Below are positions 21,068-62,412 of a stretch of DNA of 62,412 nt, in pieces. Position numbers and translations under genes: made by a program. The notes under the pieces are model-generated. The model searched no databases and had not been told where the DNA came from. It was given only the letters and a program-made list of their open reading frames with translations. The stretch's first letter is position 1. The number at the start of each line of letters is the position of its first letter. Origin of the DNA: Paraspadella gotoi (lineage: Eukaryota > Animalia > Chaetognatha); NCBI GenBank assembly GCA_051294375.1, contig JBJCIZ010000282.1:627878-690289 (forward strand), written 5' to 3'.

Positions 21068-21100
<33 letters not shown>
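20878..21100. repeat. (CT)n microsatellite block, representative of many that fill intergenic spaces of the element (also 13150-13480, 14295-14530, 36015-36140, 53035-53255, 59900-60048)
   Basis: Seen directly, at equivalent positions in different copies. Confidence 0.95.
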
Positions 21101-21309: not shown

Positions 21310-21348
<39 letters not shown>

Positions 21349-21358
21349 AACAACGAAG

Positions 21359-21665
21359 ATGATTGGCTCATGATCACGATATACTGCTTCACGCGTCGCC
21401 GTCGCCTCGTCCAGTCATCCCGATGACTATTATATTATTGCGGGGTTCTATACCGAGCCGCCGGCCGTCACAGCTTCAACGTTGAGAGATGACGCCGCGC
21501 CTTCCACCTTCGGCTTTTTCTGACCGTCGCGCCGACGACCCCGCCAATCGATTGGAACAATTTTTTTCGGCGGGTATTTCGAATTGGCGCGGGCGAAGGC
21601 CGACGCTTCTCGGGGAACCACGAGGATCGCTACGACGCCGGCGATCGAAACGAAGCCCCGCCGGT

Positions 21666-21696
<31 letters not shown>

Positions 21697-22668
21697 TCGC
21701 ATCGTGAAGTACACGCCGACGACGAGCGCGTTGCCGTGGCCGCGATCGTCGAGCGCCGCGTCGCGACAACTAAGCCGCGCGACGACGACTGATGCCGCGC
21801 ACGTATCGACGACTGATGACCGCGCCGCCCTGACGACGACGACCGCTGTGTGTCATCTCGCCGGCGTTCGAATGCCGTTTCGGCGACGAGAGACGACGAT
21901 GTGATGGTGATTCTCTCGGAATGAGACTGATCGAACGCCGGGGCATCATCGTCCGATGGAACCGAGGTAAAAAATATGCGGGTCTTCGCGTCTTTAGGGC
22001 AATCGTTATATCCGAAAAAAACTTTTTTCAGTCGTCGTGGGCAGATGGCGAGTCCGAAAGCTGGGCGCGGGGACGAATCGGTGATGACGAGGTAATCGAT
22101 GCTAATAGCCAATTTTTCTCTTTCGTTCAAATTGATTAGTTTTTTAATTTTTTTTACAGCTGGTGATAATTCCTCCGTTAGCTTCGCGAGTTATGCCGGG
22201 GCCTACGGTCACTTGTCTGCGTGATCGTAGGTTTATTCTACGTCATTCATCGAGTGAAGCGACGTGGACGTCGTCCCGGGGAGACGCCCGAGCCCTCCCC
22301 CCTCGAGAGAGTGTCTCGAGATGACATTTGCTGCCCGGACGCGAAAGGAAGAGATCGATCGAAGCGAGGACTCTCCCGGGTTCGAGTACGACGTTGCCCG
22401 CCGACGAGCGATTCTCCTTAACGTCGATCTAACGCCCGAATTTCGGTCAGCCTTTGCGGCGTTCATAATACGCTGCCGAGGTCTTTCGTTCATCGGGTCA
22501 AGTTCACGGCCCCGGCCGGTGCGGAGAAAACATTTATGGAGGTATAGAAAGGGTTGTGGAAAGCGAGGAGGATCTCGCTAGTTGGGGACGATGGGGGGAT
22601 GATGAATCTGGTGGGGGGATCGCCTATTTGACTCCCCTCGCTTTCCCACTTACGAGAGCGTGGATTGA
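21359..22668 (+). CDS. Spliced type I membrane mucin-like glycoprotein, copy B (divergent variant, indels)
   Basis: Homologous to 60257-61569; GT-AG introns at 21967-22031 and 22092-22159; transmembrane segment VIVGLFYVIHR. Confidence 0.75.
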
Positions 22669-22670
22669 TC

Positions 22671-22716
<46 letters not shown>

Positions 22717-22734
22717 GGTCTTTCCCGCTGTCGG

Positions 22735-22775
<41 letters not shown>

Positions 22776-22896
22776 TCTCTCTCTCTCTCGTGTCTGATAA
22801 TAAATTTAAATTTTTTTGGCACGAGTTCGAACACTTTCCCCGTTTGAACGATTGAATCTTGTTAAACGAAGAAACTAAAATTCGAAAATTCTAAAA

Positions 22897-23250
22897 ATGG
22901 CTATCAAAAAATATTATTTGAAACGACTTGCGAATCCAGTGACGATCGCGTAAGTAATAATAGTATATTTAAAATTGAAAATAGATTTTAAAAATATTTG
23001 TTTGTTATACTTTAAAGCTATCCACTACGATGAACGGGAAGGTGTTTCAAGCTCAGCCATCCTGGCACGAGACGGAGATTATACTCGTAGTAGTTGTAGC
23101 CATATGATTATTGTGTCTGTCATTGTTTATTATTGATGTGCATGCCAAAAATAAACTGCGTAGGTTAGTTTCTAGATTTATTTCCTACTGTTCCTAACAT
23201 GTTCGTAGTTAGTCTCGTTCCTTTGATAGATGTAGAAACCTATGTCTTGA
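22897..23250 (+). CDS. Spliced small single-pass membrane protein with ..DVETYV, copy B (indels)
   Basis: Homologous to 61729-62077; intron 22950-23017 (gtaagt...tttaaag); gat gta gaa acc tat gtc followed by AATAAA. Confidence 0.7.
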
Positions 23251-23545
23251 ACAATAAAAAATTATTTGCCAATGAATAATTCTATTGCTGTAGTTAACTG
23301 CTGGAATAAGATATCGGGGAACCCGCAATCACGAAAGTTTTTTATGGGCACGCGTCCATCAGAGTGGCAGAAGTAAACATTGCCTCTGGGTATGAGCTGT
23401 CAACGATGTGACGAGTTTTGAAGGAATATGCAGCGGCGCCGCAGTTTAGCCCGTAAAAAGAGGACATCGATGGTTTCTAGATGTATGTTCGCGCCTGGAT
23501 TTGGAACAGACGCCGGTATATTCTGTCTGTCTCTCTCTCTCTTCT

Positions 23546-23596
<51 letters not shown>

Positions 23597-25000
23597 ATAA
23601 CCTGAAATGTCTGTTCGCGCAGCGGGTTGGAATCGCGGCGTAATCATTTATCTTCGCGCGCCGCGTTTGCACAGGCTCGATTCGTTGATTTGCATTGTGA
23701 CCGACGCGCCTCTCGGTGTCCTAATGCCACCTACTCATGCGGTGATGAATATAAAAAACTATGACAATACTAGTTGGATGAAAATACGTTGATGAACTAA
23801 TTTAAATATCTCCTGTAATATAACGAGAAATTTTATTAATGCCTAATATTCGACTTTGCCTTTAAAAATAAGTCATTAATATGGGTTGCTCCATGTAAGT
23901 TTCTGCCGTCAATTGTACATCCTAGAAAGCTAACTATACTGTTGTCACAAACAGGGATCTCTCAGAATAAAAAAGTTGTACATCCCATAGTTTTTAAAGA
24001 CAGGACATCTTTGTAACTAGGATACATTTAATTTTGCTTGGGCATAGTCCTAAAAACACGTGTTTGCCACCATTCCTTCCAGACGAGAAGGGTTGCTTGT
24101 AGAGATCTACACGCTGCATCTTAAGCTTTCGTTGAGACTGACCAGCGCAGAAGAGCTCATCGGCGCATATTGTGAGGCATTATCTATGACCTTTGTCTTA
24201 GGTCGAATTGTTAGTGCGTGGTTGGTGCATGAATAATCATTTTGTATTAGCAAGTGGTTTTTATTATAGGAAGATCCTCTATTATAGAACGCAAATAGTT
24301 TCTGGACTTAGCGACTGCTCCTTGTGGTGAGCCACACAGAATTGTCAATCAAATCAGAACTTTTCTCCTAGTGAAACAACACCGAAATTTTCTATTTGTC
24401 AAAAATGAGCAAATTATTTTTAACATGCCATATGTGTAGTTTAACTATTGGATTAATTTGTGCTATATGAGACCTTGTAGCCAAATGTTGTCAAAAGCTT
24501 TTTGCATAGTCTAGCGCTTGACAAGGAGAAAAAGAGAGAGAGAGAGAGCGACATATAATTTAAAAACGTTTTCTGCTTTGTAAATAAACATAAACAGAAT
24601 ACCAATATTGAATATGAAACATGCAGAATTGTTTAAAAGATCTGATGATAAAGAAGCCATATATGAAAATTCAACTCCTATGATATCACACTTTCAGAAG
24701 CCCATGCTGATGCCCAAAAAAGCGAGACGAAAGCTAAACCGAAAAAAAAAAATCTAGACAGGACGGGCTTTGCCCCCGCCTGGCTCGATAATAGAGGATA
24801 TTTGTTTGTTTTGAATAAAATCCGTAAACAAAACATTTAAATAACTGCTCCTGACTCAATTTTTAAGGACATCGATGATGACAAGCTTTGAATATAAATT
24901 ATAATTAATCTATAATTAATTAATTAATTATAATCTATAATTAATTAATTAATCTATTAGATTAGATTAATTAATTAATCAATAATTAATTAATTATCGC

Positions 25001-33469: not shown

Positions 33470-35208
33470 TCAGATTTTTATTCAGAGTATTTATCGCTTC
33501 CGTGTCACAGGCGCCTATGAATTTTGAGCAATAAAACGAAGACCAAGATTTAAATTCGATGTGAGTGCCCGGTGGAGTCAGTACAAATTTTTGGTTTCTT
33601 TTTTCTTTGAAACATGTTTCGTAATGTTGATCTTTTAAATATAGCTTACTAAACGATCTTAAACATTTAACGCAGAAGAGCTTAATGCGGGTATTCCTGC
33701 TTATGGATGACGACAGAAGTCTGGAGAGAGACCGAATGACCATGAAGTGGCTGACGCCTTTTCCGAGCTGTAAAATTGTGAGGTCGAACTGCGGTTTTTC
33801 GTTGCACGAGGAAATGAAGAACGGGAAAATTTCTAATTTCTTATTCTTATATTCGTATGTATAAATATGAATAGCAAATAAATTTTTATTGAGTTTCTCT
33901 AATTTTTCGATTTGTCTCGGACAGGTGATCGGGAAATTCACGCCTTCGTGATTAATATATTTATAAAAGGGTTTATAATTTTTTTCGTATCGGGCTATTT
34001 TGGCAGAAAAATTAAAAATTGATGCTATTATGCAATTCAGCAAACATTTACCATCCTTACTTGGAACGTTTAAAAGCGCGTTTTTTCTTTTGAGGAAATT
34101 TGGGATTTTTGGGAAGCCTCCTCCGACACTCATGATATTTTTAAAACAATATATTTAATTTTAAGAATACTGTGTATAGATAGACGAGTCCGGATCGTTT
34201 CAGCGTCAGTTCGGAAATTTCGTAAAACAAATTTTCGAATATCCTGTTTGTGTCCCGTAACCCGTCACCGCGGATCAAGATCTCCACGGGTTGTTGACTT
34301 TCGTAATATATCAAGTTGGCGTCTTCGATGTGTTCGACGTCGCTCTCTAGCCCCCCATTCGTGGACGTGCCAACGGCGGAAAATAATGCTAAACGAATTT
34401 TTACTGAAAATTTGATAGATTTTTGTTTTTTTAGTTCTCGAAGAATGGATCCATGAGTCGATGGGGCGTTGAATCCAAAAGTCGCGAGAACGATAGGGAT
34501 CGAACGGCATGATGGATCGTTGATTCTTTAAAAACGATATGATGTCGGGAGAGTTCAGCGTTTTCACAAGAAGTTTGTTAACTTTTTTTGATTTTTTTAT
34601 TTCGAAGTGATCCGTGATTACGTGTTTAAAGNNNNNNNNNNNNNNNNNNNNNNNNNNNNNNNNNNNNNNNNNNNNNNNNNNNNNNNNNNNNNNNNNNNNN
34701 NNNNNNNNNNNNNNNNNNNNNNNNNNNNNNNNNNNNNNNNNNNNNNNNNNNNNNNNNNNNNNNNNNNNNNNNNNNNNNNNNNNNNNNNNNNNNNNNNNNN
34801 NNNNNNNNNNNNNNNNNNNNNNNNNNNNNNNNNNNNNNNNNNNNNNNNNNNNNNNNNNNNNNNNNNNNNNNNNNGAATTTGGGATATTAGTAATTTTTTT
34901 TCTTCTCGTTTTTTTGTTTCCATGATTTAGTTGTTAGGGGGGGTTGCTGGTGGGGTAAGTGGGGCGTTAGTAATATCCATGATGATTGCTTTGTTCGCCG
35001 CGATATCCTGATGATCTCCTTCGATCCGCTTCGTTCGCGCGAATATCCTGACGATCTCCTTCGTTCGGGTGGTGGAGTTGAGAGAGTTCATATACATCTC
35101 TTCTTGGCGTGGAACGTCTGATCAGAAATCATATATCGTTTATGTACATCTCCTTCGTCTGGGTGCGGTAAGCTTCGAAGACATCGGGCGGTAAAAAGTC
35201 ATTTCCAT
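33470..35208 (-). pseudogene. pPolB: pPolB N-terminal part (terminal-protein region to ExoI) with an internal deletion and an N gap
   Basis: Clean ORF 33411..34133: KIPNFLKRKNALLNVPSKDGKCLLNCI..GVNFPI..IEKLEKLN..SHFMVIRSLSRLL..FCVKCLRSF..HYETC..FIGACDTEA, the typical Polinton pPolB N-terminal pattern. Confidence 0.9.
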
Positions 35209-35279
35209 ATTTAATAGAAAACATTCGTAACAGACGGCAATTAAGTTCTTGTTGGCATAAATATCATTTTCCATTTTTT

Positions 35280-35884
35280 TTAAACAGATCGTCGACGAGT
35301 TGTTGTAGGAACTCTGGGGGTCTTCCGCTTCCGGTTCCGTCGAATCGTGACGGATGAAATTCTCGGTGATGAGATCGGTGTCGGAAAATCGTTGGGAGAC
35401 GGTGCGGGGGTGGTGTCAGGATTGGTATCGTAGGAAAATCTGGGATGTTTTCGAAGCGAAAGTACGAATCTACTTTTTGCGCTCGATTCGTGTAGAATTT
35501 TTTTTGTGGAAACGACAGAGTCCAGCGGAGGTCGTCGTTGTCTGATCCTTAGCGATAATTTCTCTGAGATGTTCTCTTGCGGTTTGTAAACGGTTTTGGA
35601 TACGATCGATGGTTCGGGAGCAGAATTTTTTATTTCGATTTCTTCACAAAAAGGTTTTAAAGGACGAAATGAGTTGTTCCTGTTGCGCGCGAGATAGTGT
35701 GCAATTTTCAATGTTTGGCAAGTTTGTTCTTGGCATAACAAATTATTTTGTCTTTTACTTGTGAGGAAATCGATTTGCTGCTACTTTGTAAATGGTTAGG
35801 GACTGTCGAAAAAAAATTTGTTCTGTTTCGTTCGTCTTCTTCTTCTCTAGAAATTAAGGAAAAATTGAGAGACCTTGATGCCAT
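35280..35884 (-). CDS. E1A-like PLDLS ORF, copy C (frameshifted)
   Basis: Homologous to 59146..59763 (IKNSAPEPSIV, PLD). Confidence 0.65.
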
Positions 35885-36059
35885 GGTAATGGGGGAGAAT
35901 GGAGTCGATTCGTTTTTTGGTCGAATCGAGAACGCAATCGTTATGGTTCGGTGGCACGCGCGCCGCGCGTTAACGGAAAAACATTGACAGATGTTGAATT
36001 GTCAGTCTGTTTCTAGTCTCTCTCTCTCTTCTCTCTCTCTCTCTCTCTCTAACGTATTG

Positions 36060-36090
<31 letters not shown>

Positions 36091-36094
36091 AACG

Positions 36095-36143
<49 letters not shown>

Positions 36144-36349
36144 TTTCATTCTTTCCCTTCTTATCTATAAATGACTAATGACCCTAAGCTCGCGAAAGTT
36201 TTTCTTCTGTCAACTGATAAGTTTCTTTTCCATTGTTCGCTTTCACTTTTCATTTCACTTCTCGTTTTCTTTTTCGCTTTTTCTGAAATTTTTTCCGACT
36301 CTTTCTGTCTCTCTCTTCTCTCTCTCTCTCTTTTCAAATAACCAAAGAG

Positions 36350-37630
36350 ATGATTCGGCTCATGCTCGCGATATGCTGTTTCGCGTCCGCGTGCTCGTCC
36401 AGTCATCCCAGATGACTATTACTACTAGGTGGATATTATACCGACACCCGGCCGTCACCAGTTTGACGTTGAAGATGACGCCCGCCGGTCCTTCCCTTGG
36501 TGTTTTCGGACCGCTGCGCCAACAAACGCCCGCTATCGATTGGAACAATTTTTTTGACGAGTATTCAAATTGGCGGGGCGAAGGCCGACGTCTTCTCGGG
36601 GAACGACGACGATCGCTAGACGCCGGCGATCGAAACGAGCCGGGGTGACGACGACGACGGCGACGACGACGACCGACGACCGGTGAGGAAGAGTAGCCGC
36701 GCCGACGACGCGAGTTGAGGAAGAGTACCGCGCCGCGGCGACGAGCGCGGTGCCGTGGGCGCGGTCGTCGAGCGCCCGGACACCGACGACGACGTAATAC
36801 CGCGCGACGACGACCTGGCCGCGCCGACGAACGACCGGGCCGAGCCGCGCCGGCCCGACGACGACGACGACGACCGCGGTGCCATTGTCGCGGTCGTCGA
36901 GTCTGTTCCGACACGAGAGCGACGATGTCGGGATTTCTCGTGAATGGGACGATCGAACGCCTGGAGCATCGCCCCGATGGAATCGAGGTAAAAAATATGC
37001 GGGGTCTTGCGTCGTTAGGGCAATCGTTTATATCAAAAAAAAATTTTCAGGCGTCGGGGCAGATGGCGAAATCGAAAGGGGGCGGGGAAACGAACCGATG
37101 ATGATGACGAGGTAATCGATGATAATAGCCATTTTTTCTCTTTAGTTCGAAATTGATTAGTTTTTAATTTTTACAGGCTGGCGATAATTCCTCTGTTCAC
37201 TTGCGACCTACGCGGGACCTACGGCACTTGTCTGGTGGTCGTAGGTTTTTTTATCGCGTGTTCGCGGAAAGCGGGTGGACGTCGTCCTGGAGGACGCGGA
37301 CTCCTCCCCTCGAAGGGAAGTGTCGAGATGAATCGACGCTCCCCCCAGGAGAGAAGAGGTCGATTCGAGCGATAGACTCTCCCGGACGTACGAACGCTCT
37401 GCGCGCGATGACTCCTTACTGATTTAACACCAATTTGGTCAGTCGTTCGGGGTCTTCGTCACCATCCTCAACGTTCACGCCCCCGCCGATTGGGGAGAAA
37501 ACATTACGGGGGCTGAAAGGGTGGTGGGGAGAGCGAGGAGGATCTTCGCTAGTTGGGACGGACTGAGGGAGGATGACGAGGGGATCGTTATAACTCCCGT
37601 CGCTTTCCCCAGTACAAAGCGGTATGACTC
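36350..37630 (+). CDS. Spliced type I membrane mucin-like glycoprotein, copy C (indels)
   Basis: TPAIDWNNFF, acgacg Thr repeats, and both introns (gag|gtaaaaaatatg..ttttcag; gag|gtaatcgat..ttacag) are conserved. Confidence 0.72.
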
Positions 37631-37645
37631 ATCTCTCTCTATCTT

Positions 37646-37682
<37 letters not shown>

Positions 37683-38329
37683 CTCTTCTCGTCAAACCTG
37701 TCTCAATCATCCAGTTAAATGTCATTCACGTTACAATGAAAGACTTAATCAGAGGTACTATAAGACGTATGCAACACTAGTCCACCTATTTTAGATAAAT
37801 TAAAACCTATCATACAGGAATACTCGATTGAATGCTTGTTGTCTAATTACACTTCAAACATTCAGGAGATGTATTATTGATCTCTTCGCTATAGAGAGTG
37901 TGCATCATCTATATCATTGACCTTAACAAAATGAAATAAGATGAGGTTATATCTATCGCTATACTACAAACTTTGAGAGATATGGACTCTACTCATCCGA
38001 GACAACTACACCTCCCCTCTCACAACTAACCTCTTTATGGTCCTAACCCGTATTCGCATTAATCCCCAATTTTTTTGCTTAATCTTGTTCTCAAATCACT
38101 TCAGGTATATCAATCGTGAATATCAAAATATATTGAGTTAATACATTAGACATTAAAGTAGTATTATATAGTCTCGATTAATATCATAATCAGCACTACA
38201 AATTTATTTGAATCTAAGTTCAAATTTCAACAAACGCAGAAGCTATCTCAGAAATCAACCTAATGCATTTTAAGATATTATCTTCAAGATCGATTAAAAT
38301 AGTTGACAAATCACAAACTGCTATAATCA

Positions 38330-38890: not shown

Positions 38891-39659
38891 GATGCGATAC
38901 GAAGAAAGTTTTCAGATAATTAGAAAAGATATAACACGAAGAAAAGAATCTCAAACAGTTTTATATGTTTGATATTTGTGGTTTTAATATAAAACACTTG
39001 ATTATTAAAGTTTTTCAAGAGTGGATATGAACAGGTAGGAAGAAGTCAAATGTGGCTACCTGGACCTTGTCGCTCCGTCTCTGTCCCTAGGCGCAATATT
39101 CACAGGATCTGTCAAACTGCGCGCGTGCGAGATATAAATATAGCTTCCAGAACTGGAACCTCGTCGAATTCCTTCCGTCGCGATTACCATATTGCTGGAA
39201 GGTTTTACTCTGGAACAAGTAGCGACACATTTTGAAGAGTTAAATAAGGAGTGAGTGATAGAGCAGTATGGTAGCCGCGCTGAACTTAAATAGTTATTCT
39301 ATCTCTTGATAAATAAAATTAAAACGTATTACCGATATTATCCAAAACGAGCTCGCTCTCTCCGTCACTACTTTTTAACCCGCCGCGCAACATACATCTA
39401 GACCATCGACTGGTGCTCCGCGTAACTTTTTCGTTCACGTGAATCCGAGCAGCGCGACAGCCGCATATTTTTCCAACTCGATCAACTCGCTCTACAGCGT
39501 CGATACCCAGGAGCCACAATGTTTTACCTTCTTACAGCTACTGTTATGACGCGTCACCATAGAAACTTCGTGAATAGCGGGTTTCCCCGGCTATCATTAT
39601 TAACTAAGATAACCTAACATCAATAATTTGTATATCATTGCAAATATTTTTTTATTGTT

Positions 39660-40130
39660 CAAAATAGGTTCTCTACATCTCTACAAAAGAATCGAGAACT
39701 AAACTACTAGTACATGTTAGGCAGAAACCTCTCGAATGGTAAGGATCAATAAGATATAGCTGAAAGAAAGAGAATACTAACGTGAGCGCTCATGTTAAAT
39801 TTATTATGCCTAAGCACAACTAATTTCACAACAATGAAGCAGAGACAATAATCAATAGGGTACAACATCGTAACGAGAGGTTAATGGATCTCATGTCATC
39901 ATTTGCCCAGATTCGGGCTTGGGCAGGGACGACTAGTGAACACCTTCCCCGTTTCATCGTAGGTGGATAATCTTTTAGATTGATCAAACGATCAGAAATC
40001 TGAGATTTATTATACTTTAAACTATTCCTAATATTATTTAAATATTACTTATAACTTACCTCGCTCTCTTGATCCGTCGACTCTGTGCTCTTTCTCTCTC
40101 CATTAAAATAAAAAATATTATGTATAGACC
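39660..40130 (-). pseudogene. Inverted, noisy copy of the small membrane protein gene
   Basis: Reverse complement matches 22900-23250 and 61730-62077 (agatgtagagaacctat; attgattattgtctct; ccacctacgatgaaacggggaaggtgtt). Confidence 0.65.
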
Positions 40131-40519
40131 TCTTTTTAGCAATAATTCTGTAATTTTTTAGCTTCTCTCTTTTTCTCCCAAATTTCAAATCTCAAACGGG
40201 AGATAAGTTCTCCAAAGTTATCTCCGTGCCTCTCTAAACATAAAATCATCATACACCCATTCTCTCATCTCTTCACTCTCCCAGACATCGTACGTATTTC
40301 GGTATGATCGCTACGAAGATAATTTCAGACGAGCGCAGTATGTAGTTGGCCGTACGCCACACCTCTGCAGACAGCAGTTGGTGCCTCCATGTACCTGAGA
40401 GAGATGAAGTGAGTTGTATGAGAGATGTATGCAGAGATTATGAGAGAGACGAGAGATGCATAGACATTCTACGATCTCTCTTAGATGCATGAGACTATCG
40501 TTTCATACTTCTCTGCCTC

Positions 40520-42130
40520 TCTCTTCTCTTGCTCCTGCTTCATCTTGGGAAAGCGACGGCCCGGGCTTTAGTAACGATCCCCTATCCTCTCCCCCTCAGT
40601 CTCGTTCCCCCACATCTACCTGAGATTCCTCTCCTCTCGCTTCCTTCCACCCAACCCTTCCTATGCATTCTCTCCTAGTAAGTGCTTTCTCCTCCTCCCT
40701 CTCGTGCTCTCGGGGAACGATGAACCATGCGGCCTCGTATTGCCGCCAACATGAAGATCTCTCGGCAGGTATTATTGACGCCGACTGATAGGCCCCTGAC
40801 CGAAATTAGGCAGTTAAATCCATTGTAAGTTGAATCACTTCTGTCGCGGGCAAACCGTCTGTACTTACCCGGGAGAGTCCTCGCTTCAGATTTGTATGGT
40901 ACGACCTCTCTACCTCATCCGTCGCGACTCGGCTACGCGTTCTTCATTTCACTCTCTGACACTCCTCAGCAGAGGAGTCGGCGTCTCCTCCCGGACGACG
41001 CCCACGCCGCTTTATCCGTCGAACCGCCGAAAACATAACCTAAGACCACTAGGCAGGTGGCCGTAGGTCCCTCGCATTAGGATCGCTAAGCGAACGGAGA
41101 ATTATTACCCAGCTTGTAAAAAAAATTAAAAACTAATCAATTTCGAAACTAATAGAGAAAAAATTGGCTATTTAGCATCGATTACCTCGTCTATCATCGA
41201 GTCTCCCTCCGCCCCGTCTTTTCGACTCGCCATCTGCTCCCGACGCCCTTGAATACATTTTTTGGATTCTCTACTAATACCGATCGCCCTAAAGTACGGC
41301 CAAGAAACCTCGCATATTTTTACCTCCGGTTCCCATTGGTAGAGAGGCTGCTCCCGGGGCGTTCGATCATCTTCAGTCACAGAGAAATCACCGACATCGT
41401 TCGTCCTTCGTCGTTCTGTCGCCGAAGACCATTGGTTGTTCTGTCACGACCGCGACAATGACACCATGTGCGGTCGTCGTCGTCGTTCGTCGGCGGCCCG
41501 ATGTCAAATGGACATCGGTCGTCCTAGGATCGCGTCGCACCTTTGGCAATACGTCTGTATCCGGCGCCCGGTGTATCTAATACGATTCAGTACAGTCAAA
41601 CAGGCAAGAGCTTTCGAGAACGACCGCAACCATGGCCACCAAGACGCCACATACAGTCTCGGCCGCAGGTATCTTCCTACAAATCGTCGTCGTCGGCGCG
41701 GACTCTTCCTCACCCAGTCGTCGTGTTCGTCGTCGCCGTTAAGCGTACGCTCGTCACCGGCTTCAATAGATTTTCAGATCGCGCAAGAACAAAAGGCTCG
41801 TATGCAGGGCATCTTCGTTGGTTCCCCGAGAAGCGTCCGGGCTCTCCGCCCGCTCCCAATTCGAATTACCCGCCGAAAAAATTGTTCCAATCGATTATGG
41901 GGGTCGTCGCGCAAGTCGAAAAACCAAAGTGGAAGGCGGCGGCGTCTATCTCTCATGTACGTTTTGAAGCTGTTTTGTGTACGGAGCGCATGTTGGTTCC
42001 GTGCAACTAAATCTCATAACGCCCCCGATAGTTTGTTGAAATAAAGTTCCACTCTAGTATTGTGACTGGCGGAGCAACAGCGGTTCGTTGAAAAGAGTAT
42101 ATTCAGTGATTCATGAACCAAATCCACTTA
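40520..42130 (-). pseudogene. Inverted, noisy copy of the mucin-like membrane protein gene
   Basis: Reverse complement contains atcgattggaacaattttttcggcggg (IDWNNFF) and the intron gtaatcgatgct..agtttcgaaattgattagtttttaattttttttacaag at ~41113-41186. Confidence 0.75.
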
Positions 42131-43429
42131 CTCTTTCTATTTTCGATTAATTATATGAGAGAGAAGAATCTAGAGATGAGGGGTAGATTGAGCCATGCAC
42201 AAGAGAAAAGTCGGGAAAAACTTGGAATGTCAGCAAAAGCTGTAAATGAGTGTGAAAAGCGAGAAAGTGGTATATATATGAAAAGGAATAGTGTGGAAAG
42301 AGCGAACAATGGAAAAAGAAACTTATCAGTTTGACAAGGAAGAAAAACTTTCCCGAGCTCTTAGGGTCATTTATCAGTGTTATAGAATTAAAGACGAGTG
42401 CAAAAATGATAGAGCCACCGAGAGAGAGGAGAGAGGACTGAGAGGAGAATGTAAGAGGACCACTTTTGCGACGGAGAGAGATTACAACCTAATCAGCGAG
42501 GAGTTAGCAGGAAGCAGATTGGAGAATTGAAGATTCTTTCGAGATGATAGATGAAAGAGAATGAAAAAGATTCTAGGATTATGACCAATGCAATCGATTA
42601 TTGTGTGAAGAGTAGTGTCTTACTGATTGAAGAATATGACACATTACTTTTTTCCCCAAAAATTTTAATTTTCGCGCGTATATCACTTTCCCTGTGTCAT
42701 AATATACTCTCTTTCACTCTTTCGTCATTACAGATTCTCATTTATTTTGTATCTCATCAGTCGTTACCCCGTCAAAGAGACGGCAGGCCGGGTCGATATC
42801 GATAATTAGACATGTGTGCACCTCTAGCGTCCTCCTTCGCATTCTCTATTTATCTCGTCTCTTCCTCTGAATTATGATCGGTACAACACAGCAACTTGAT
42901 ATCTCTCTATTCTTCATAATCTCCTCTCGTTATCCCTACACCCATGGTATCTGTGAATCTCCCATTTTTACTCACCTTAATTTCTATCAGAAGAAGTGTC
43001 TACGTGATATTAGCTACTGCAACTCATTATACTCTACAATATATCTGACATCTATATTATTTGTTCGGATGTTCGGTGGAGGTCGGGGCTTCCGAGTAGG
43101 GACAGCTTAAGCTAGGGAAAAGGAGGAGAAAAGAGTGAGTGTAGAGAAAATAGTTATATGAGTATTTATTATGTTATTGATTAATTTATTATCTGGGGTT
43201 AATGTTTCGTCACGAAGTATTATGTCTCGGCACGGTTTTTCGTTGTCTTTGTTTGTGAATTGCAAATTCGCAATCGAGAAGATATACAATTATCATCGTT
43301 TATTTTTTATGTCTATTTCTAAAATGTACATCCTGAGGATAGAAATAAACTAATCCTACGAGTAGTATTAGTATATTATATATATTTAATTCACACACTA
43401 AGTTTATTTACACTACGACGATGAATAAA

Positions 43430-48603: not shown

Positions 48604-49899
48604 ACGTGCGTGGAAAGGATTGAACGTGTTCGACAAAGAGCATAGTGGAAGTCATCAATACGACAGCGCTTACTTTTTAGAGTTGAAGCCTCAAATTCCT
48701 CTCGACTCAAGTCTTCCTAGATCGTCTTCAAACGGGAGCCCCATGAACGAATTCATCGATTTTGGAGATTCCTACATGAAACTTCACGTTAAGATCACTA
48801 AGGGGATAATACGGCTATCGATGCCGCATCGGCGGTTATATTCAGTCGGCTTCAAGCAGATACCAACGCCTCAATTTTTAAAAATTTTGGATATTGTTTA
48901 GGTGGGACAGTCTCTAACAGCGCAGGATAATTGTCACGGGTATACATCGTGGTTGACATGCTGATGAACATGGATAAGCAATGGTTGAGAACGAAAGGGA
49001 AATTTATTAGGCTGTTATTACGAAAGTAACCCAGTACTAACCGAGCGGACACGGGCTTTTTCGGTTTCAAGGAACGCCTCCGAAACCACAAAACTTCCCA
49101 CGTAGCCGTATACGTAGCCCCCATTCTTTCACAGTTTCGCTCTTTCGGCACAATACTGATGCTTTCATGATGGACGTGAGTATAGCTTACGAAGACAGGT
49201 CGACGCCTTCCCCATCCTCTCGGACATCACCACCGGCACCTTCAAATACGAAAATCGTCGACATGTCCGTCATGCTCAAGCAGGTCGTCGTGAACCCGAG
49301 TTATAACCTAAGATTGGAAGCGACATTGCGAAAAAAATGCTAGGTACGAATTTAATATATTGCGATGCTTCGAATATAGCTTACCATCGGGCCAGAAGAT
49401 CCTATTCTTTCGACGACGTCTCGCGAAAAACGAGATCCCTCAAATCGCCATAGTCGGTATCGTCGACGCCGACGCCTTCGAAGGTACTTTTAAAGTCACC
49501 GTATTATTTTCAGCATCGCAACTAAAAAATTGGTATATCAAATCTCCGGAAAAAATTACCCCCAGTCCGAACGGTTTCACCTCGATTTCGAATCGACGAC
49601 GGCGCCCGATTGGATCGAAGGGTTTCCTTCGTTATTTCAGCTGACGGCATTTATTCCAAGGATTCGTTATGTATAGACTACGAAAGATACGACAGCGGAT
49701 ACACGTTGATATGCACACGTTCGACGCCCCCAGCACGTCTCCCGATATCCACTCTTTACCAAATTCGCGCCGGCCAAAATAACGCTGGAATTCCGGCACC
49801 GATCTCCCCAACAATAGTAAACTTTGGTATATTCTATTTTTAATCGCGAAATCTTCATAAATTCTCAAAGACGAGATCTTGCTAAATTATAATCTGTAA
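48604..49899 (+). CDS. MCP: Double-jelly-roll major capsid protein (Polinton PY/hexon-like), frameshifted; start hidden by the N gap
   Basis: LNVFD..YDSAYFLELKPQIPLD..NEFIDFGDSYMKLHVKITK; MSVMLKQVVVNP..RYEFNILRCFEYSLPSG..IPQIAIVGIVDADAFEG; IDYERYDSGYTL; ends ILLNYNL*. These match Polinton MCP blocks (EYIDL..L.VK.KI, IP..I.IG.V...AF.G, GYTL). Confidence 0.88.
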
Positions 49900-50053: not shown

Positions 50054-50527
50054 ATGGATACTCGATCGCTCGATCAACTAGCATTTTTCAGATCCGCTGA
50101 TCGCTTTTTTTTTCATCGGAAAACTAAGGCATTGGATCAAAATACCGACTATTATTAAACCTAAACGTTGCTAATTTATAAACACAGAAAGCATCCTCGG
50201 CCGGACGGCACTGGATAGCTATTTTCGAGTTTAAACGCGCCGAATCTGCTAGAAATCGTGATTCCCGCTAGGGGATCCGCTTCAGCCGACCTCGCTCGAC
50301 TCCATCTTTAAAGCGTCTGCTCGCGAAATCGTATACAACGATAAATTGAAACAAAGGGAAAATGGCTTCTTCTGCGACTACATTGTCTATTTTTTTTGTA
50401 TTTCTTTGCCAGAGACTTTTCCGCCTGCGAAATATTAAACAAAATATTATACTTCTACCTCGTATATAAACGATGTTTTCATATCTAATTTTATTTCATC
50501 CGCTTTTTTTAAATTCGAAGAACATAA
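50054..50527 (+). CDS. PRO: Adenain-like (C5 family) maturation cysteine protease, frameshifted
   Basis: MDTRSLDQLA..; INTE..(P)GRHWIAIF (catalytic His ~50209); QRENGFFCDYIVYFF (oxyanion Gln ~50352, catalytic Cys ~50373); lies directly after MCP. Confidence 0.8.
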
Positions 50528-55487: not shown

Positions 55488-58400
55488 ATTATACATGTCT
55501 TAGGCTTCCTGATAGTCACTCTCGAAATGTTTTTCGTTTGAGTCGGGGGATAAAAATCTTTCGTGGTTAGGGAATTCCGTTTGTTGCTAAACACATTCAC
55601 TCCTTGAAGAAAATCGTAGGAAAAAGTTTGCTTTCTGAGAAACTGGGGGCCAAGGATTCGTTCATAATTATTGTTGTTTACAAATTGATGGGTATAAAAA
55701 AAAAATTTTTTTTAAATTTTTTCGCGCAGTCTTGCGCAGGGGGGTTCAGAACCCTTTTCGTTCGACACAAATCGCCAAAACGTTATTTTCGAATAATTTG
55801 TTCACCAGGGAGCCAGACTCTCGAAATTAAAGTAGTTACACAATCGAATTTTTTGAACGCGAAAAGTCTCAGTCTTTACACTTTTTACACGAATTTTTTT
55901 CTTTCGTTGTTTTATGAAAAACTTCTAATCCTTTTCCCGTTCTTTTTCAGCGGTTCGTCAATCATCATCGTCGTGTTCTCTGAGTCGTCGTCCTTGTCCT
56001 CGCGAGCACAGCCTCTAAGCCGGCTCCCCGTCGTTCGAATCTAACTCCCACTCGTGTCTTCGTCGTCTGGCAGACCTTCTCGCCGGCTTCAGTCGCTTTC
56101 CGCGCCTCCAGCGCCTCCAGACGGTCGTAAGCTTCGGAGATTCCCGGGCATGTCGGCGAAACCATCTTTCTCCCTTTCTCCGAACTAAATGGGAACGTGC
56201 CCTTTTCTGTACTCTTCGATCTTTTCGGTTTCGTTTCGCTCTGCAGGTCCAGGCATTAAGAAACGTATTGCTGACGCTCATGACCTTTTCTTCCGTCTTA
56301 CCCAAGACACCACTCTTGCGAAAATAATGGCTTAAGTTCGCTATGGAAGAGGAGCCAGGATGCTGGGTGAAGTCATAACTTGAGATTTGTATAGCTATAG
56401 TATTTCGCTCTTGTCTATCAATGCTAAATTACATCAGATTGCAAAACTATAGCATATATTTTATGTTAAATGTGTAATCCAAATCAATATTACCGGATAA
56501 ATGTTCGTTGATGTAAATACTGTTACTTGTTTCTGAATAATAAATCATTTTTTTTGGAAAGGAATCTTACATAATTCACAGTTTTTTGCGCTTTGTACTC
56601 TTTGCGAATTTATCTGTTTATTTCTAACATGTTGGTAGTTATGAGTTCATTTAATTTCGTAAGAGTCGTTATTACAGAGGAATCCAAAAATGTTTTTTGA
56701 AACTGTGTAATTTCATTCTTCCTCGCTCTTTGCCTGATAGTGCCTGATTAGAAGGTATGTGTTTATCATAGTAATTAAATTATACTGATAGGCGTATGAA
56801 ACCAATTTAAATACTTTATAATGTTTACTTCGTTTATAAAATTTGATGCATGCATGTCACTACCGCACATCCCTACTGTGTTCGTTTTTCGTTGCTGAAT
56901 CGGCACCAAGGTTGTTCTTGATCCTCTCCCTCTTCCAAGGGATGTACTCTCTGTTCAGATTCAGGAATTTTTATTCAGAGTATTTATATCGCTTCCGTGT
57001 CACAGGCGCCCTATGAATTTTGAAAGCAATAAAACGAAGGACCAAGATTTAAATTGATTGTGAGTGCCGGTGGAGTCAGCTACAAATTTTTTGTTTCTTT
57101 TTTCTTTTGAAACCGTTTCGTAATGTTGATCTTTAAATATAGCTACTAAACGATTTCTTAAACATTTAACGCAGTTAAGAGCTTAATGCGGGTATATTTC
57201 CTTAGCTTATTGGATGACGACAGAAGGTCTGGAGAGAGACGGAATGACATGAAGTGGCTGACGCCTTTTCGAGCTGTAAAATGTGAGGTCGAACTGCTGG
57301 GTTTCGTTTTGCACGAGGAAATGAAGAACTGGGAAAATTCAATTTCTTTATTCTTATTTGTATGTATAAATATTGAATTAGCAAATTAAATTTTATTGAG
57401 TTTCCTAATTTGTTCGATTTGTTCTCGGACAGGTGATCGGGAAATTCACGCCTCGTGATTAAATAATTTATAAAAGGGTTTATATTTTTTTTCGTATCGG
57501 GCTATTTTTGGCATAAAAAGTTAAAAATTGATGCTTATTATGCAATTCAGCAAACATTTACCATCCTTACTTTGGAACGTTTAAAAAGGCGTTTTTTCTT
57601 TTGGAGGAATTTTGGGTTTTTGGGAAGCCTCTGCCGACACTCATTGATATTTTTAAAGCGGAATATATTTTATTTTAAGAATACTGTTGTATAAGATAGA
57701 CGAGTGCCGGGATTGTTTCAGCGTCAGTTTTTGGAAATTTCATAATAACAAATTTTCGAATATCCTTGTTTAACGTGATCCCGTAACCCGTCACGCGGAT
57801 CAAGATTTCTACGGGTTGTTGACTTTCCGTATATATTTCAAGTCGCGTCTTCGAGTGTTCGACGTCGCTCTCTTCCCCCCATCTGTGGGACGTGCCAACG
57901 GCGGAAAATAATGCTAAAACAATTTTTACTGAAAACTTTGATAGATTTTTGTTTTTTAGTTCTCGAAGTATAAATTCTAAAAAGCGGTTTTGGCTCTCTT
58001 AAGCAATTCGACAAAATCGGCCGACTCTTCGCGAGGAACGAATTCTTTAAACGATTGAATTATTTTGCCTAATGATTTTTGATACGAACTTAAATAAATC
58101 AACGTTATTTTGAGATAAACCGAATAAAGACTCTCGTATTCGTCCTCTTTTATCCGGAGTTGGCTATTTTTTTTTTTCTTTAAATTTATTGTTAGTAAAA
58201 TGCTTACGGGTTACAATCTCTTTCGTCCTCCCAGTCGTCGGACTCTTCCTCTCGAAGCTCGCGTTCCTTCGTCGTCGTTGGTTCCTCTTCGTTGCTGGGT
58301 GGTGTGGGCTCGCTGTGTGGTAAGAACTCGTTGGCTGCGGTGGTGGGTGGGTCGGCGTTTCGCGGGAATTCGGTGATTTGGCCGGTATCCTTGTTACGTG

Positions 58401-59070
58401 TGGGTGGAATTGAAGTTCTCGTGATTCGCTTCGGTGGAAGGATGCATTGGAGGGAACTTTGACCCTCTGCCGAACTTTCCCCGTTCCTCTTTGCGGAAAG
58501 AATGGATCCATGAGTCGATGGGGCGCTGAATCCAAAAGTCGCGAAGAGAACGATAGGGATTTCGAACGGCTACATGGTGGACGTTGATTCTTTAAAACCG
58601 ATATGATGTCGGTGAGAGCTTTCACGTTTCACAAGAAGTTTTTTAACTTTTTTGTTTTTTATTTCAACAGTGATCCGTGATTACTGTGTTTAAGTACAAT
58701 GTCAAGTGTTGTTGTGTAAGAAAAATTTACTATTACCTCCTCCAATCCTAATGGATTCTGATAATCGCGAATTTGGGATATTAAAGTAATTTTTTTCTCT
58801 CGTTTTTTCGTTTCATGATTAGTGTTAGGGAGGGTTGCTGTGGGGGTAAGTGGGCAGTTAGTAATTGTCCAATGATGACCGCTTTCGTTCGCTGCGATAT
58901 CCTGATGTATTTTCCTTCGTTTCGGGGGGTGGAGTACGAACTTACATTGCTCGGTCTTCTTCGCGATGGTAAGGCGTTGTCGTCAGGGGAAATCATTAGT
59001 CTATTGACATCTTCTTCCCTTGGAGTCGGTAAGCTTCCGATAATTCGGCGAAGAAAAGTCATTTACCATA
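55488..59070 (-). pseudogene. pPolB: pPolB N-terminal two-thirds in copy D, frameshifted; polymerase motifs A-C absent
   Basis: Collinear with 16605-20070 and 347-4600. Confidence 0.88.
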
Positions 59071-59145
59071 TTTAATTTTAATAGAAAGCATTCGTAACAC
59101 TGGCAATTAAGTTCTTATTGGCATAAAATATCGTTTTCCATTTTT

Positions 59146-59763
59146 TTAAAACAGATCGTCGACGAGTTGTTGTAGGAACGCCGTGGGGTCTTCCGCTTCC
59201 GGTTCCGTCGAATCGTGGCGGACGAAATTCTCGGTGGTGAAATCGGTGTCATGAAAATCGTTGTGGGAAGACGGTGTCGGGGGATGTGGAGTCAGGATTG
59301 GTATCGTAGGAAAATCTGGGATGTTTTTGAAGCGAAAGTACGAATCTACCTCTTCTGCGCTCGATCGCGTAGAACTTTTTTGTGTGGGAACAGACAGGTC
59401 CAACGGAGTGTCGTTGTCGTCGATCCTTAGCGATAATTCTCTGAGATGTTCTCTTGCGGTTTGTAAACGGTTTTGGTGAACGATCGATGGTTCGGGGGCA
59501 GAATTTTTTATTTGGATTTGTTCACAAAAAGTTTTAAAGGACGAAATGAGTTGTTCCTGTTGCGCGCGGATGGTGTGACAATTTTCGCAATGTTTGGCAA
59601 TTTCGTTCTTGCATAACAAAATTATTTTGTCTTTTACTTGTTGAGGAAAATCGATTTCTTCGCTTACTTTGTAAATGTTTAGGGACTGGTCGAAAAAAAA
59701 TTCGCTCTGTTTTCGTTCGTCTTCTTCGGTAGAAATTAAGGAAAAATGGGGACTCAATGCCAT
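59146..59763 (-). CDS. 205-aa E1A-like/'oncoid' putative transcriptional regulator with a CtBP-binding PLDLS motif
   Basis: Intact ORF: CENC, predicted coiled coil, DDNDTPLDLSVP (PLDLS at 59392-59406), Pro/acidic region, C-terminal FLQQLVDDLF; present in four copies. Confidence 0.8.
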   Translation of the reverse strand: MALSPHFSLISTEEDERKQSEFFFDQSLNIYKVSEEIDFPQQVKDKIILLCKNEIAKHCENCHTIRAQQEQLISSFKTFCEQIQIKNSAPEPSIVHQNRLQTAREHLRELSLRIDDNDTPLDLSVPTQKSSTRSSAEEVDSYFRFKNIPDFPTIPILTPHPPTPSSHNDFHDTDFTTENFVRHDSTEPEAEDPTAFLQQLVDDLF

Positions 59764-60017
59764 GGCGCGAAATGGGGGGAATGACGTCGACTCGTTTTTC
59801 GGTCGAATCGAAACACGATCGTTATGGTTCGGTGGGCACGCGCGCGCGCGTTTACGGAAAACATTGACGAAGATAGATGTTTTGAATTTGTCTAGTCTGC
59901 TTCTCTCTGCATCTCTCTCCTTCTCTTCTCTCTCTCTCTCTCTCTCTAACGTATGTTCTCCTTCTCTCTCTTCTTCTGCTTGTCTCTCTAACGATGTCTC
60001 TATCTCTCTCTTCTCTC

Positions 60018-60044
<27 letters not shown>

Positions 60045-60048
<4 letters not shown>

Positions 60049-60250
60049 GGTGGTTTTTTCATTCTTTCCCTTCTTATCTATAAATGACTAATGACCTTAA
60101 GGCTCGCGAAAGTTTTTCTTTCTGTCAACTGATAAGTTTCTTTTTCCATTGTTCGCTTTTTCACTTTTCACTTTTTCGCTTTTTCGCTTTCTGAAATTTT
60201 TTTCCGACTTTTCTGTCTCTCTCTCTCTCTCTCTCTCTTTCAAATAACCA
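60045..60250 (+). promoter_or_regulatory. Divergent promoter/5' region between the PLDLS ORF and the mucin-like gene: TATA box, GATA site and TTTCAC/TTTCGC repeats
   Basis: TATAAA at 60079-60084, tgataag at ~60130, ttttcacttttcactttttcgc at 60157-60191; conserved at ~21100-21300, ~36140-36300 and inverted at ~42200-42430. Confidence 0.5.
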
Positions 60251-60256
60251 ACGAAG

Positions 60257-61569
60257 ATGATTCGGCTCATGCTCGCGATATGCTGTTTCGCGCTCGCCGT
60301 CGCTCGTCCAGTCATCCCAGATGACTATTATTACTACGGTGGATATTATACCGAGCCACCGGCCGTCACCGTTTTGACGTTGAGGATGACGCCGCCGGTT
60401 TCCACTCCGGTGTTTTCGACCGCTGCGCCAACAACGCCCGCTATCGATTGGAACAATTTTTTTAGACGAGTATTCAAATTGGCGTGGGCGAAGGCCGACG
60501 TCTCTCGGGGAACGACGACGATCGCTATGACGCCGGCGATCGAGACGCGGCCCGCGCCGACAACGACGACGACGACGACGACGAGTGCCGCGCCGGTGAG
60601 GAAGAGTGCCGCGCCGTCGATCGCGACTGCCGCGCCGACGACGAGCGCGGTGCCGTGGGCGCGGTCGTCGAGCGCCGCGCCGACGACGACGAGGGGCGCC
60701 GCGCCGACGACGACGGGTGCCGCGCCGACGACGACGGGTGGCGCGCCGCCGACGACGACGGGTGGCGCGCCGCCGACGACGACCGCGGTGCCATTGTCGC
60801 GGTCGTCGAGTGCCGCTTCGACAATGCAGGCGATTTTCGCGGTGAATGGGGACGATCGAACGCCTGGAGCATTCGCGCCCGATGGAATCGAGGTAAAAAA
60901 TATGCGGGTCTCGCGTCTTTAGGGCAATCGTTATATCAAAAAAAAATTTTCAGGCGTCGGGGGCAGATGGCGAAATCGAGGAAGGGCGGGGAAACGAACC
61001 CGATGATGATGACGAGGTAATCGATGATAATAGCCATTTTTTCTCTTTAGTTCGAAATTGATTAGTTTTTAATTTTTTTACAGCTGGGCGATAATTCCTC
61101 TGTTCACTTGGCGACCTACGCGGGACCTACGATCACTTGTCTGGTGGTCGTAGGTTTATTTTATGTGATTCGGCGTGATGTGAAGCGGGCGTGGACGTCG
61201 TCCTGGGAGGAGCCCGGACTCCTTCCCCTTCGAGAGAGTGTCTCGAGATGTCGACCTTACCGAGAATCGGCGCAGGAAGATCGATCGAGGCGAAAACTCT
61301 TCCTGGACGCGTTCGACGTCTCGACGCGAGACTCGCCTTACCTCGATTTAACCACCAATTTTGGTCAGTCGTTGCGGTCTTTCGTCCACCATCCTCAAGT
61401 TCACGCCCCCGCCGATGGGGGAGAAAACATTTACGGGGGGCTGGAAAGGGTGGGGGAGAGCGAGGAGGATCTTGCTAGTTGGGGAACGGACTGGGGAGAG
61501 GATGAAGTGGACGAAGGGGATCGTTATTTAACTCCCGTCGCTTTCACCACGTACAAAGCGGTTGACTAA
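60257..61569 (+). CDS. 3-exon, 394-aa type I membrane mucin/proteoglycan-like glycoprotein (exons 60257-60892, 60954-61016, 61084-61569)
   Basis: Signal peptide MIRLMLAICCFALAVA, Thr/Ala/Pro-rich stalk, two phase-0 GT-AG introns (61 and 67 nt) that give one open frame without any correction, transmembrane LATYAGPTITCLVVVGLFYVI followed by RR, acidic Tyr-containing tail. Confidence 0.85.
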
Positions 61570-61728
61570 TCTCTCTCTCTCGGTCTCGGTCTTTCCGCTG
61601 TCGTTCGGTCTCTCTCTCTCTCTCTGGATAATATATTTTAACTTTTTTTGGCACGAGTTTCGAACACTTTCCCCATTTGAAACGATCGAGATTTGTAAAG
61701 AAGAAACAAATTTTAAAATTCGAAAAAA

Positions 61729-62077
61729 ATGGCTATCAAAAAATATTATTTTGAAACAAGTGTGAATCCAATGACGATCGCGTAAGTAATAATAGTATAT
61801 TTAAAATTGAAAATAGATTTTAAAAATATTTTGTTTATTACTTTAAAGATTATCCACTACGATGATCGGGGAAGATGTTCGAGCTCAGTCATCCGGACAC
61901 GAGACGGAGATCGTACTCATAATTTTAACCATATTGATTATTGTTTCTCTCATTGTATTATTGATGTGTGCATGCAGAAATAAACTTCGTAGGTTAGTTT
62001 CTAGGTTATTTCCTGATGCCCGTAACAATGTCGTAGTTAGTTTCGTTCCTTTGTTAGATGTAGAAACCTATGTTTGA
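61729..62077 (+). CDS. 2-exon, 93-aa single-pass membrane protein with C-terminal PDZ-binding motif ETYV (exons 61729-61781, 61849-62077)
   Basis: A 67-nt intron gtaagt..ctttaaag joins MAIKKYYFETSVNPMTIA in frame to LSTTMIGED..; transmembrane IVLIILTILIIVSLIVLLM, then CAC and a basic stretch; AATAAA at 62080-62085. Confidence 0.82.
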
Positions 62078-62412
62078 ATAATAAAAAATATTTGCCAATG
62101 AATAGTTCTATTGATGCCAGTTAACTATTGAATAAGATAGCCGGGGGAACCCGCATATTCGTGAAAAAGTTTTTATGTGGACGCGTTCTCTCTGTGTGAC
62201 AGAAGGTAAACATTGCCTCTGGCTAGAAGCTGTCAACGGTTTGACGAGTTTTGGAATATAGGGGCACCATGGCTTTAAGCCGTAAAAAAGTAGGAACCTT
62301 GATGGTTCCGATTGTTTGTTCCGTTGTAGGACGGAACAGACGTCGATATATGGGGGATGGAACAGACGTCGGTCTCTCTCTCTCTCTCTCTCGTCCCGAA
62401 ATGTCTGTTCGC

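Follow-up and report, generated by a model that had tools for sequence, protein, structure and literature searches.

The stretch of DNA analysed here (the window) comprises 62,412 nucleotides of contig JBJCIZ010000282.1 from the chaetognath Paraspadella gotoi (assembly GCA_051294375.1, positions 627,878 to 690,289 of the forward strand). Self-comparison of the window revealed five partial copies (A to E) of one element, which we assign to the Polintons of the adintovirus type. Next to the gene of the protein-primed DNA polymerase (PolB), copy D carries three accessory genes: gene 1, whose product contains the motif PLDLS, a gene for a mucin-like type I membrane protein, and a gene for a small membrane protein ending in ETYV (Table 1). 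This trio had been proposed in a first-pass annotation made from the letters of the window. All three frames are open in D, the last two with predicted introns, and gene 1 is divergent from the mucin-like and small genes.

Three orphan genes in copy D

From its N- to its C-terminus, the gene 1 protein has an acidic start, a predicted helical part (residues 13-115) that includes its single CxxC (59-62), the PLDLS motif (120-124), a disordered part rich in proline and acidic residues, and an acidic final helix that is also visible in B and C. The exact PLDLS motif turned up in 0.0007 of 200,000 residue shuffles of the protein. Copies B and C run on past the stop of D, in a homopolymer tract, and the C-terminus given here is that of D. 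The AlphaFold2 model obtained without an alignment reached a pLDDT of 54 and a pTM of 0.26, and residues 10-118 modelled as a dimer with zinc scored 0.01. E1A ranked first for gene 1 in the ESM Atlas (0.87, 168 of 256 features, recognition 1333), with 3 of 10 family hits in agreement, which we treat as a lead only.

After removal of both predicted introns, the mucin-like gene of D encodes 394 residues in a type I layout. Its stalk (residues 86-200) consists of 51% serine, threonine and proline, and the acidic tyrosine cluster past the signal is reminiscent of sulfotyrosine sites. The tail contains five tyrosines (292, 319, 350, 381 and 390); its S-x-Y-x-x-L, T-x-Y-x-x-V and ENIY sequences presumably resemble immunoreceptor tyrosine-based inhibitory motifs (ITIM), their switch counterparts (ITSM) and EPIYA-type sites, respectively. 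The tail motifs ENIY, YLTP and the terminal YxxV are also found in B as it stands. The small protein of 93 residues begins with 38 residues devoid of a signal peptide, followed by a strongly hydrophobic transmembrane segment (TM; residues 39-57, hydropathy 3.54) and a basic amphipathic helix (61-72; hydrophobic moment 0.83 at 62-72). Among 200,000 shuffles of this protein, a fraction of 0.001 ended in E[ST]xV and 0.056 in any class I PDZ-binding end.

By the searches performed, the three genes are orphans with no detectable homolog. For gene 1, none was found among 5.8 billion proteins (0 of 48 candidates) or 1.84 billion representatives (0), in viral (0 of 7) and metagenome (0 of 118) contigs, or by exact look-up. 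The sequences of the PDB gave a single match at E 0.24, and 0 of at least 500 matches of the AlphaFold2 model in BFVD reached E 0.001. The mucin-like and small proteins were searched in Pfam and viral contigs, where no homolog was found: exon 2 of the small gene scored 0 of 96, and the 2 of 11 candidates obtained with mucin-like exon 3, both a 28-residue match on large contigs, were rejected as chance.

Table 1. Features of the window (positions of the whole stretch; aa, amino acids)
Feature	Position	Strand	Remarks
Gene 1	59146..59763	-	205 aa, single exon, open frame in D
PLDLS codons	59392..59406	-	CtBP-type motif, residues 120-124
Divergent intergenic region	59764..60256		CT microsatellite; TATAAA at 60079
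Mucin-like gene, exon 1	60257..60892	+	signal-like hydrophobic N-terminus, acidic Tyr cluster, Ser/Thr/Pro-rich stalk
Predicted intron 1	60893..60953	+	61 nt, GT-AG, phase 0
Mucin-like gene, exon 2	60954..61016	+	63 nt, 21 acidic codons
Predicted intron 2	61017..61083	+	67 nt, GT-AG, phase 0
Mucin-like gene, exon 3	61084..61569	+	predicted TM (~244-262) and 130-aa tail
Small gene, exon 1	61729..61781	+	
Predicted intron 3	61782..61848	+	67 nt, GT-AG, phase 2
Small gene, exon 2	61849..62077	+	TM, Cys58 and Cys60, basic amphipathic helix, ETYV end
AATAAA	62080..62085	+	polyadenylation-type signal directly after small gene
Fourth, Cys-rich frame	~58660..59139 (D); 19690-20142 (B)	-	between gene 1 and PolB
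Protein-primed PolB of D	~55490..58200	-	frameshifted; N-terminal and exonuclease part only
Adenain-type protease remnant	50181..50501	+	weak match; His and Cys motifs collinear
Major capsid protein remnant	48674..49484	+	weak match; collinear second segment; frameshifted
Copy A	1..5359		part of PolB and part of gene 1; PolB breakpoint common to D
Copy B, diverged variant	~14800..23740 (~14100..23700 by self-comparison)		PolB with polymerase core on -; gene 1, mucin-like and small genes
Genes of copy B	~20145-20748; ~21370-22670; ~22899-23250		gene 1; mucin-like gene; small gene
Copy C	33474..37686 (33470 by self-comparison)		N-terminal part of PolB, gene 1, mucin-like gene; two N gaps; small gene absent
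Copy E	~39340..42450	-	inverted, partial, very noisy: promoter, mucin-like and small genes
Copy D	to window end		gap-free from 48604; element runs off the window

Selection on the accessory genes and their predicted introns

The ratio of replacement to silent substitution rates (dN/dS) was calculated for D against B unless stated otherwise, on gap-free codons only and with a bootstrap 95% range. It was 0.23 (0.13-0.41) for gene 1 (170 of 205 codons) and 0.42 (0.27-0.65) for the mucin-like gene (233 of 394 codons), in which the N-terminus (0.29) and the TM with the tail (0.33) are the constrained parts. The N-terminus of PolB, compared between C and B over 182 of 227 codons, gave 0.08 (0.04-0.16). 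Looser or stricter gap filters did not alter these values, except for the small gene, which moved between 0.55 and 1.15. Control frames shifted on the same strand gave 0.81 and 1.40 for gene 1 (n=2) and 0.65-1.51 for the mucin-like gene (n=4), and the comparison of D with C gave 0.60 and 1.33 on few changes, not different from 1, as read noise gives. Positive selection on the membrane genes was considered and rejected, no estimate being significantly above 1. The dN/dS check that the first-pass annotation had called for thus points to purifying selection on gene 1 and the mucin-like gene and leaves the small gene indistinguishable from neutral. Moreover, the similar silent divergence (pS) of PolB (0.36), gene 1 (0.30) and the mucin-like gene (0.27) indicates that the three diverged as one unit.

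Contigs of an independent short-read run (X1) bear on gene 1 as well. Over 59290-59620, nine contigs show no indel relative to D and 52 differing places; among the 40 of these differences that were listed, 25 are silent where 11.8 are expected, and none of 10,000 simulations reached 25. PLDLS is covered by three contigs, and the two differences found there among those listed are both silent, whereas residues 119, 125 and 126 beside the motif do change. At least three variant contigs are present per site, and PolB is covered too.

The three predicted introns all have lengths not divisible by three, and reading on through intron 1 or intron 3 meets a stop at once. Between D and B, 5 of 163 intron sites differ (5 of 153 once the splice dinucleotides are left out), compared with 42 of 178 fourfold degenerate sites, a difference that holds within base classes (p 2e-7 for A/T sites and 0.007 for G/C sites). 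In exon 2 of the mucin-like gene, flanked by introns 1 and 2, 8 of 43 sites differ, and in intron 3 none of 56 scored sites. This low intron divergence lends indirect support to splicing of the predicted introns. Decay of CpG after insertion was rejected as the cause of the higher exon divergence: at non-CpG sites, 142 of 1143 exon positions and 2 of 149 intron positions differ, and the absence of any stop in 469 clean codons of B also counters this reading. The X1 run behaves as DNA (203 contigs covering 29 of 30 bins of the region) and has no bearing on expression; one contig crosses intron 3 unspliced, and no joint occurs at any of the three introns. By eye, positions 8970-9065 are similar to intron 1 of the mucin-like gene together with the beginning of exon 2, a match that blastn did not report.

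The element and its copies in the window

To identify the element, we used a comparison set of 13 Polinton-like loci from IMG/VR, picked with two motifs. A profile of 10 PolBs from IMG/VR matches the minus strand of the window in A, B, C and D, with a best E of 2e-28 at 34169-33492. One locus of the set, L013, encodes an A32 ATPase together with an rve-chromo integrase and a C5 protease; compared with the window it gave E 6e-18 for PolB, 0.001 for the capsid and, by phmmer over the window, 0.0019 for the protease. The protease remnant sits after the capsid gene, as in L013. In D, the capsid, the protease and other frames lie on the plus strand, followed by PolB on the minus strand and then by the accessory region. 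These matches bear out the Polinton/adintovirus assignment of the first-pass annotation, and on such sequence evidence an adintovirus-type Polinton is identified as the source of the three genes. The observed/expected ratio of CpG is 1.6-1.7 in the three genes, 1.4-1.6 in the PolB and capsid regions of the element and 1.0-1.1 in the flanks. Used as library queries, the PolB fragments gave no match, and Pfam returned nothing useful on 142 open reading frames (ORFs) and 24 read-through frames, a result that is uninformative since the intact PolB and capsid of L013 escape Pfam as well. When 200 ORFs from the 13 loci, a small and mostly unrelated sample, were scanned for motifs, a single PxDLS came up, located in a capsid gene, and no ORF ended in E[ST]xV.

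Several copies of the trio beside PolB had been claimed, with B and D complete and C lacking the small gene. Linkage to PolB is indeed found in A, B, C and D, and the small gene is absent from C; B is complete in gene content only. The inverted partial copy E had been overlooked, as had a fourth frame, rich in cysteine, that lies between gene 1 and PolB. Raw long-read sequence is indicated by three gaps of 25 N and by 2.6-12 indel events per 100 nt between copies. B and D differ by 2.8-9.1 indels per 100 nt, and none of the three accessory frames is open in B as it stands. In the accessory genes, D and C differ by 0-7% substitutions, mostly at the level of read noise, as do A and D. Judging from these figures, A, C and D may be a single variant, and the window would then hold just two or three independent variants. 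D and A share an identical break in PolB followed by ~350 nt of other sequence (55134-55489 and 1-347), which may reflect a non-autonomous subfamily or one locus assembled twice. Copy E has B-like letters and ends at a CT microsatellite; that it might be the other terminal inverted repeat (TIR) of D was ruled out, as its letters follow B.

In B, the GC and CpG contents fall ~500 nt past the small gene, after ~23740, and this drop is likely to be the end of the element. Directly before it, positions 23620-23740 are CpG-rich and hold the window's only ATTTGCAT octamer (23688) as well as CCTACT (23730); this segment could be a terminus with a replication origin. On the plus strand of D, between protease and PolB (50530-52900), there are CpG-rich frames that have no Pfam match, one of them very basic and another of ~200 aa starting at 51780. 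A stretch at 14081-14769 and 52816-53513 is common to B and D. These frames and the common stretch are probably further genes of the element.

The Cys-rich frame starts a few bases past the stop of gene 1 and is open over 151 codons in B, across an N gap, and broken in D. In B it has a CxCxxC near its start and a CxxC with a histidine near its end. It may be a second zinc protein in the position of the adintovirus Oncoids (see below), or may be joined to gene 1. L013, a Polinton of animal type, also has a Cys-rich frame in the Oncoid position, directly upstream of PolB (867-1232), with several CxxC and no Pfam match. In the 5' region of PolB, a segment of 39-43 nt on the minus strand (58165-58207), also present in A and B, starts with GTAAG, contains TACTAAC and, in B and D, ends with AG; this segment may represent a very short intron of the polymerase gene, or could be coding. 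The GC-rich region with long frames to the left of B (10000-13220) differs from the region left of D, and a small AT-rich repeat resembling a miniature inverted-repeat transposable element occurs in direct and inverted orientation in the flank (24932-25068, 25680-25834 and 28008-28116).

A candidate host-control module and its parallels

From the sequence, we consider it probable that the three genes form an early host-control module in the terminal accessory region of an adintovirus-type Polinton. The divergent intergenic region, presumably a bidirectional promoter, would drive gene 1 in the direction of the Cys-rich frame and PolB, with the membrane genes transcribed the opposite way. The gene 1 protein is likely to bind the corepressor CtBP through PLDLS; its helical N-terminus would probably serve as scaffold, and the acidic helix at its C-terminus would probably offer an activation-type surface, with CtBP sequestered or redirected and repression relieved. 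The predicted spliced mucin-like protein would lie in the plasma membrane, exposing a glycosylated stalk on the outer side and keeping tyrosine docking motifs on the inner side; there it may well shield the cell or alter adhesion and recruit SH2 proteins via its ENIY motif and those presumed to be ITIM/ITSM-like. The small protein would anchor to junction or polarity scaffolds by its PDZ-type end; we propose more tentatively that it could be palmitoylated at Cys58 and Cys60 and remodel junctions or membranes, aiding release or spread.

Several points weigh against this reading. Binding of CtBP, PDZ and SH2 partners, localization and splicing are predictions, and all divergence figures derive from one noisy pair (D vs B) and one run (X1). 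A broad CtBP-type pattern turns up in 0.04 of 200,000 shuffles of gene 1, and one antisense control frame of gene 1 gave a dN/dS of 0.43, which is expected where third positions coincide. The E1A-like character proposed for the cassette holds for PLDLS, which is kept with silent changes in X1; a pattern scan of gene 1 found no LxCxE ([LI]xCx[DE]), conserved region 1 (CR1) pattern or basic nuclear localization cluster. The TM of the mucin-like protein is only moderately hydrophobic (1.76), and its stalk taken alone is near neutral (dN/dS 0.74, p 0.44). For the small gene, dN/dS is 1.00 (0.42-4.14) on 66 of its 93 codons, where 5 changes are silent and 16 are replacements, and the ETYV claimed for it is C-terminal in D only, as B in its present state does not stop after ETYV. 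As to the element, every core gene is frameshifted in the assembly and an intact element is absent from the window. The PolB of D breaks off at ~55490 without the polymerase core, which is found in B only. Integrase and packaging ATPase were not found with profiles of 7 and 8 sequences and the L013 proteins, on copies that are frameshifted and partial. No TIR was found either, the right end of B having no inverted partner and D running off the window.

The selection observed shows that the genes serve the element, but selection alone cannot tell the infectious cycle argued for in the first-pass annotation from activity of the integrated element; a working infectious cycle is plausible. The genes might instead be functional cargo acting from the integrated element, for instance as a selfish or protective module with superinfection exclusion or effects on germ line or embryo, and have no need for an infectious cycle. 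Nematode Mavericks, in the accessible part of a preprint, carry intron-bearing cargo near one end, one of which became a selfish toxin (bioRxiv 10.1101/2022.07.12.499685). The short, host-type introns and the truncated polymerase of D and A, in a copy D whose accessory frames stay open, are in line with this explanation, and surface mucins could block the entry of related viruses. However, PolB is more constrained than the accessory genes at equal silent divergence, which indicates that the element was replicating while the accessory genes were under selection. Capsid and protease genes are present, and the motif set is that of lytic DNA viruses in the parts of the literature available. We regard the cargo explanation, the main rival, as rather unlikely.

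It is highly improbable that the three are ordinary host genes lying beside, or recently captured by, a decayed Polinton. Predicted spliceosomal introns, a poly(A) signal and good start contexts would suit host genes, and many host receptors likewise combine a signal peptide and mucin stalk with a TM and a tyrosine tail; against this, the same order recurs beside PolB in four copies of two diverged variants, gene 1 has no homolog among the 1.84 billion representatives, CpG content is element-like, and X1 holds several variant contigs per site, PolB included. An assembly patchwork with chance motifs is largely refuted already and deserves hardly any credence. The N gaps and the indels between copies do mark raw long reads, and A, C and D could represent a single locus that was read three times, but D is free of gaps from 48604 to the window end and the short-read contigs keep its gene 1 frame. 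Moreover, read noise gives a dN/dS near 1, as between D and C, and so cannot yield codon-level selection. At the other extreme, and unlikely in our judgement, the module would be a full adenovirus-like early region in an invertebrate-type Polinton: gene 1 would antagonise CtBP in the manner of E1A, the mucin would signal as E3 proteins do, and the small FAST/ADP-like protein would fuse or lyse cells. If true, the 93-residue protein would be the first small fusion or egress protein in a Polinton, the elements would run a real infection in animal tissue and spread from cell to cell, and the toolkit of small DNA tumour viruses (CtBP, phosphotyrosine and PDZ mimicry) would have arisen again, or earlier, in the Polinton relatives of adenoviruses.

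RID is among the E3 proteins of adenoviruses, and their E4-ORF1 is derived from a dUTPase. The sources cited from here on were available in part, and what we say of them refers to those parts. PLDLS is a CtBP ligand in E1A, EBNA3C and Meq (PMC11209466). Gene 1 shares with E1A the PLDLS of conserved region 4 and the place in the terminal early region of a virus with protein-primed PolB, but has no CR1, CR2 (LxCxE), CR3 or sequence homology (Pfam at E 1); its E1A likeness, by sequence, is one motif plus position. E4-ORF1 binds PDZ scaffolds through a C-terminal ligand (PMC8449131), which here is found on a membrane protein. ADP belongs to the type III membrane proteins and has two cysteines by its TM (PMC7449217), and the small protein has the same topology and two cysteines after the TM, by sequence pattern only; its exon 2 has no adenoviral Pfam match at E 1, and its ectodomain no N-x-S/T. 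Like the reovirus FAST proteins (PMC7412057), it has ~95 residues, an ectodomain of <40 residues, a single TM rich in beta-branched residues, juxtamembrane cysteines, a basic cluster and an amphipathic helix, and its match to Pfam Orthoreo_P10 is weak and below the cut-off (E 0.14). It differs from them by lacking a Gly2 myristoylation site and an ectodomain cysteine or cystine noose, and by an endodomain of 34-36 residues compared with 40-140. As the FAST ectodomain fusion motifs are absent and no homology to ADP is seen, its sequence places it in neither class. The likeness to E1A, E3 and E4-ORF1 most probably reflects convergent mimicry of motifs and not homology.

Among Polintons, the core genes of vertebrate Mavericks form two modules on opposite strands, and the accessory regions lie outside these (Barreat and Katzourakis 2021, PMC8097293), as here with capsid and protease on the plus strand, PolB on the minus strand and the accessory genes beyond it; introns were not seen in the intact elements described there, and accessory genes were uncharacterised. 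Nematode Mavericks (Widen et al., bioRxiv 10.1101/2022.07.12.499685) carry intron-bearing cargo (wasp, krma) and the membrane fusogen MFUS-1, and resemble our element in a GC-rich terminal region of 2-5 kb, intron-bearing genes and an element-encoded type I membrane protein. Their cargo consists of proteases and kinases beside the integrase, and MFUS-1 is a class III fusogen of 866 residues, whereas our element has the region at its PolB end, encoding motif-rich orphans without a folded ectodomain. Introners have been described in Polinton-like elements of dinoflagellates (PMC11957031). The main texts of three preprints (bioRxiv 10.1101/2025.02.07.637071, 10.64898/2026.10.13.758929 and 10.1101/2024.03.25.586562), in the parts available, contain no such cassette, nor was a description of such a trio found in the literature covered, which largely excluded subscription journals and Repbase.

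The nearest parallel is given by the Oncoids, E1A-like genes typically upstream of PolB in adintoviruses and defined by Rb-type motifs (Starrett et al. 2021, PMC8502044). Gene 1 resembles them as an orphan short-linear-motif protein with a CxxC upstream of PolB, from which the Cys-rich frame separates it; the features that define an Oncoid are LxCxE, a CK2 site, CR1 and paired CxxC, and gene 1 has PLDLS and one CxxC. In ~4 million characters of supplement text of that paper, PLDLS, CtBP, mucin and transmembrane do not occur, nor does 'splic' in the main text available. The first-pass annotation did not recognise the cassette from described Polintons; the trio as such was not found elsewhere, but E1A-like Oncoids upstream of PolB, intron-bearing Maverick cargo and an element-encoded membrane protein were already described. 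What is new is that a protein with a CtBP-type motif occurs together with a mucin bearing tyrosine motifs and a small FAST/ADP-like protein. The debate on whether animal Polintons are infectious viruses or transposons rests mainly on conserved capsid genes, and a selected accessory module with candidate ligands for CtBP, SH2 proteins and PDZ scaffolds opens direct tests of host manipulation. Annotation of Polintons by ORFs only overlooks spliced accessory genes of this kind, and compared with the known systems, the module would extend the Oncoid concept beyond Rb-binding motifs, to CtBP and the cell surface.

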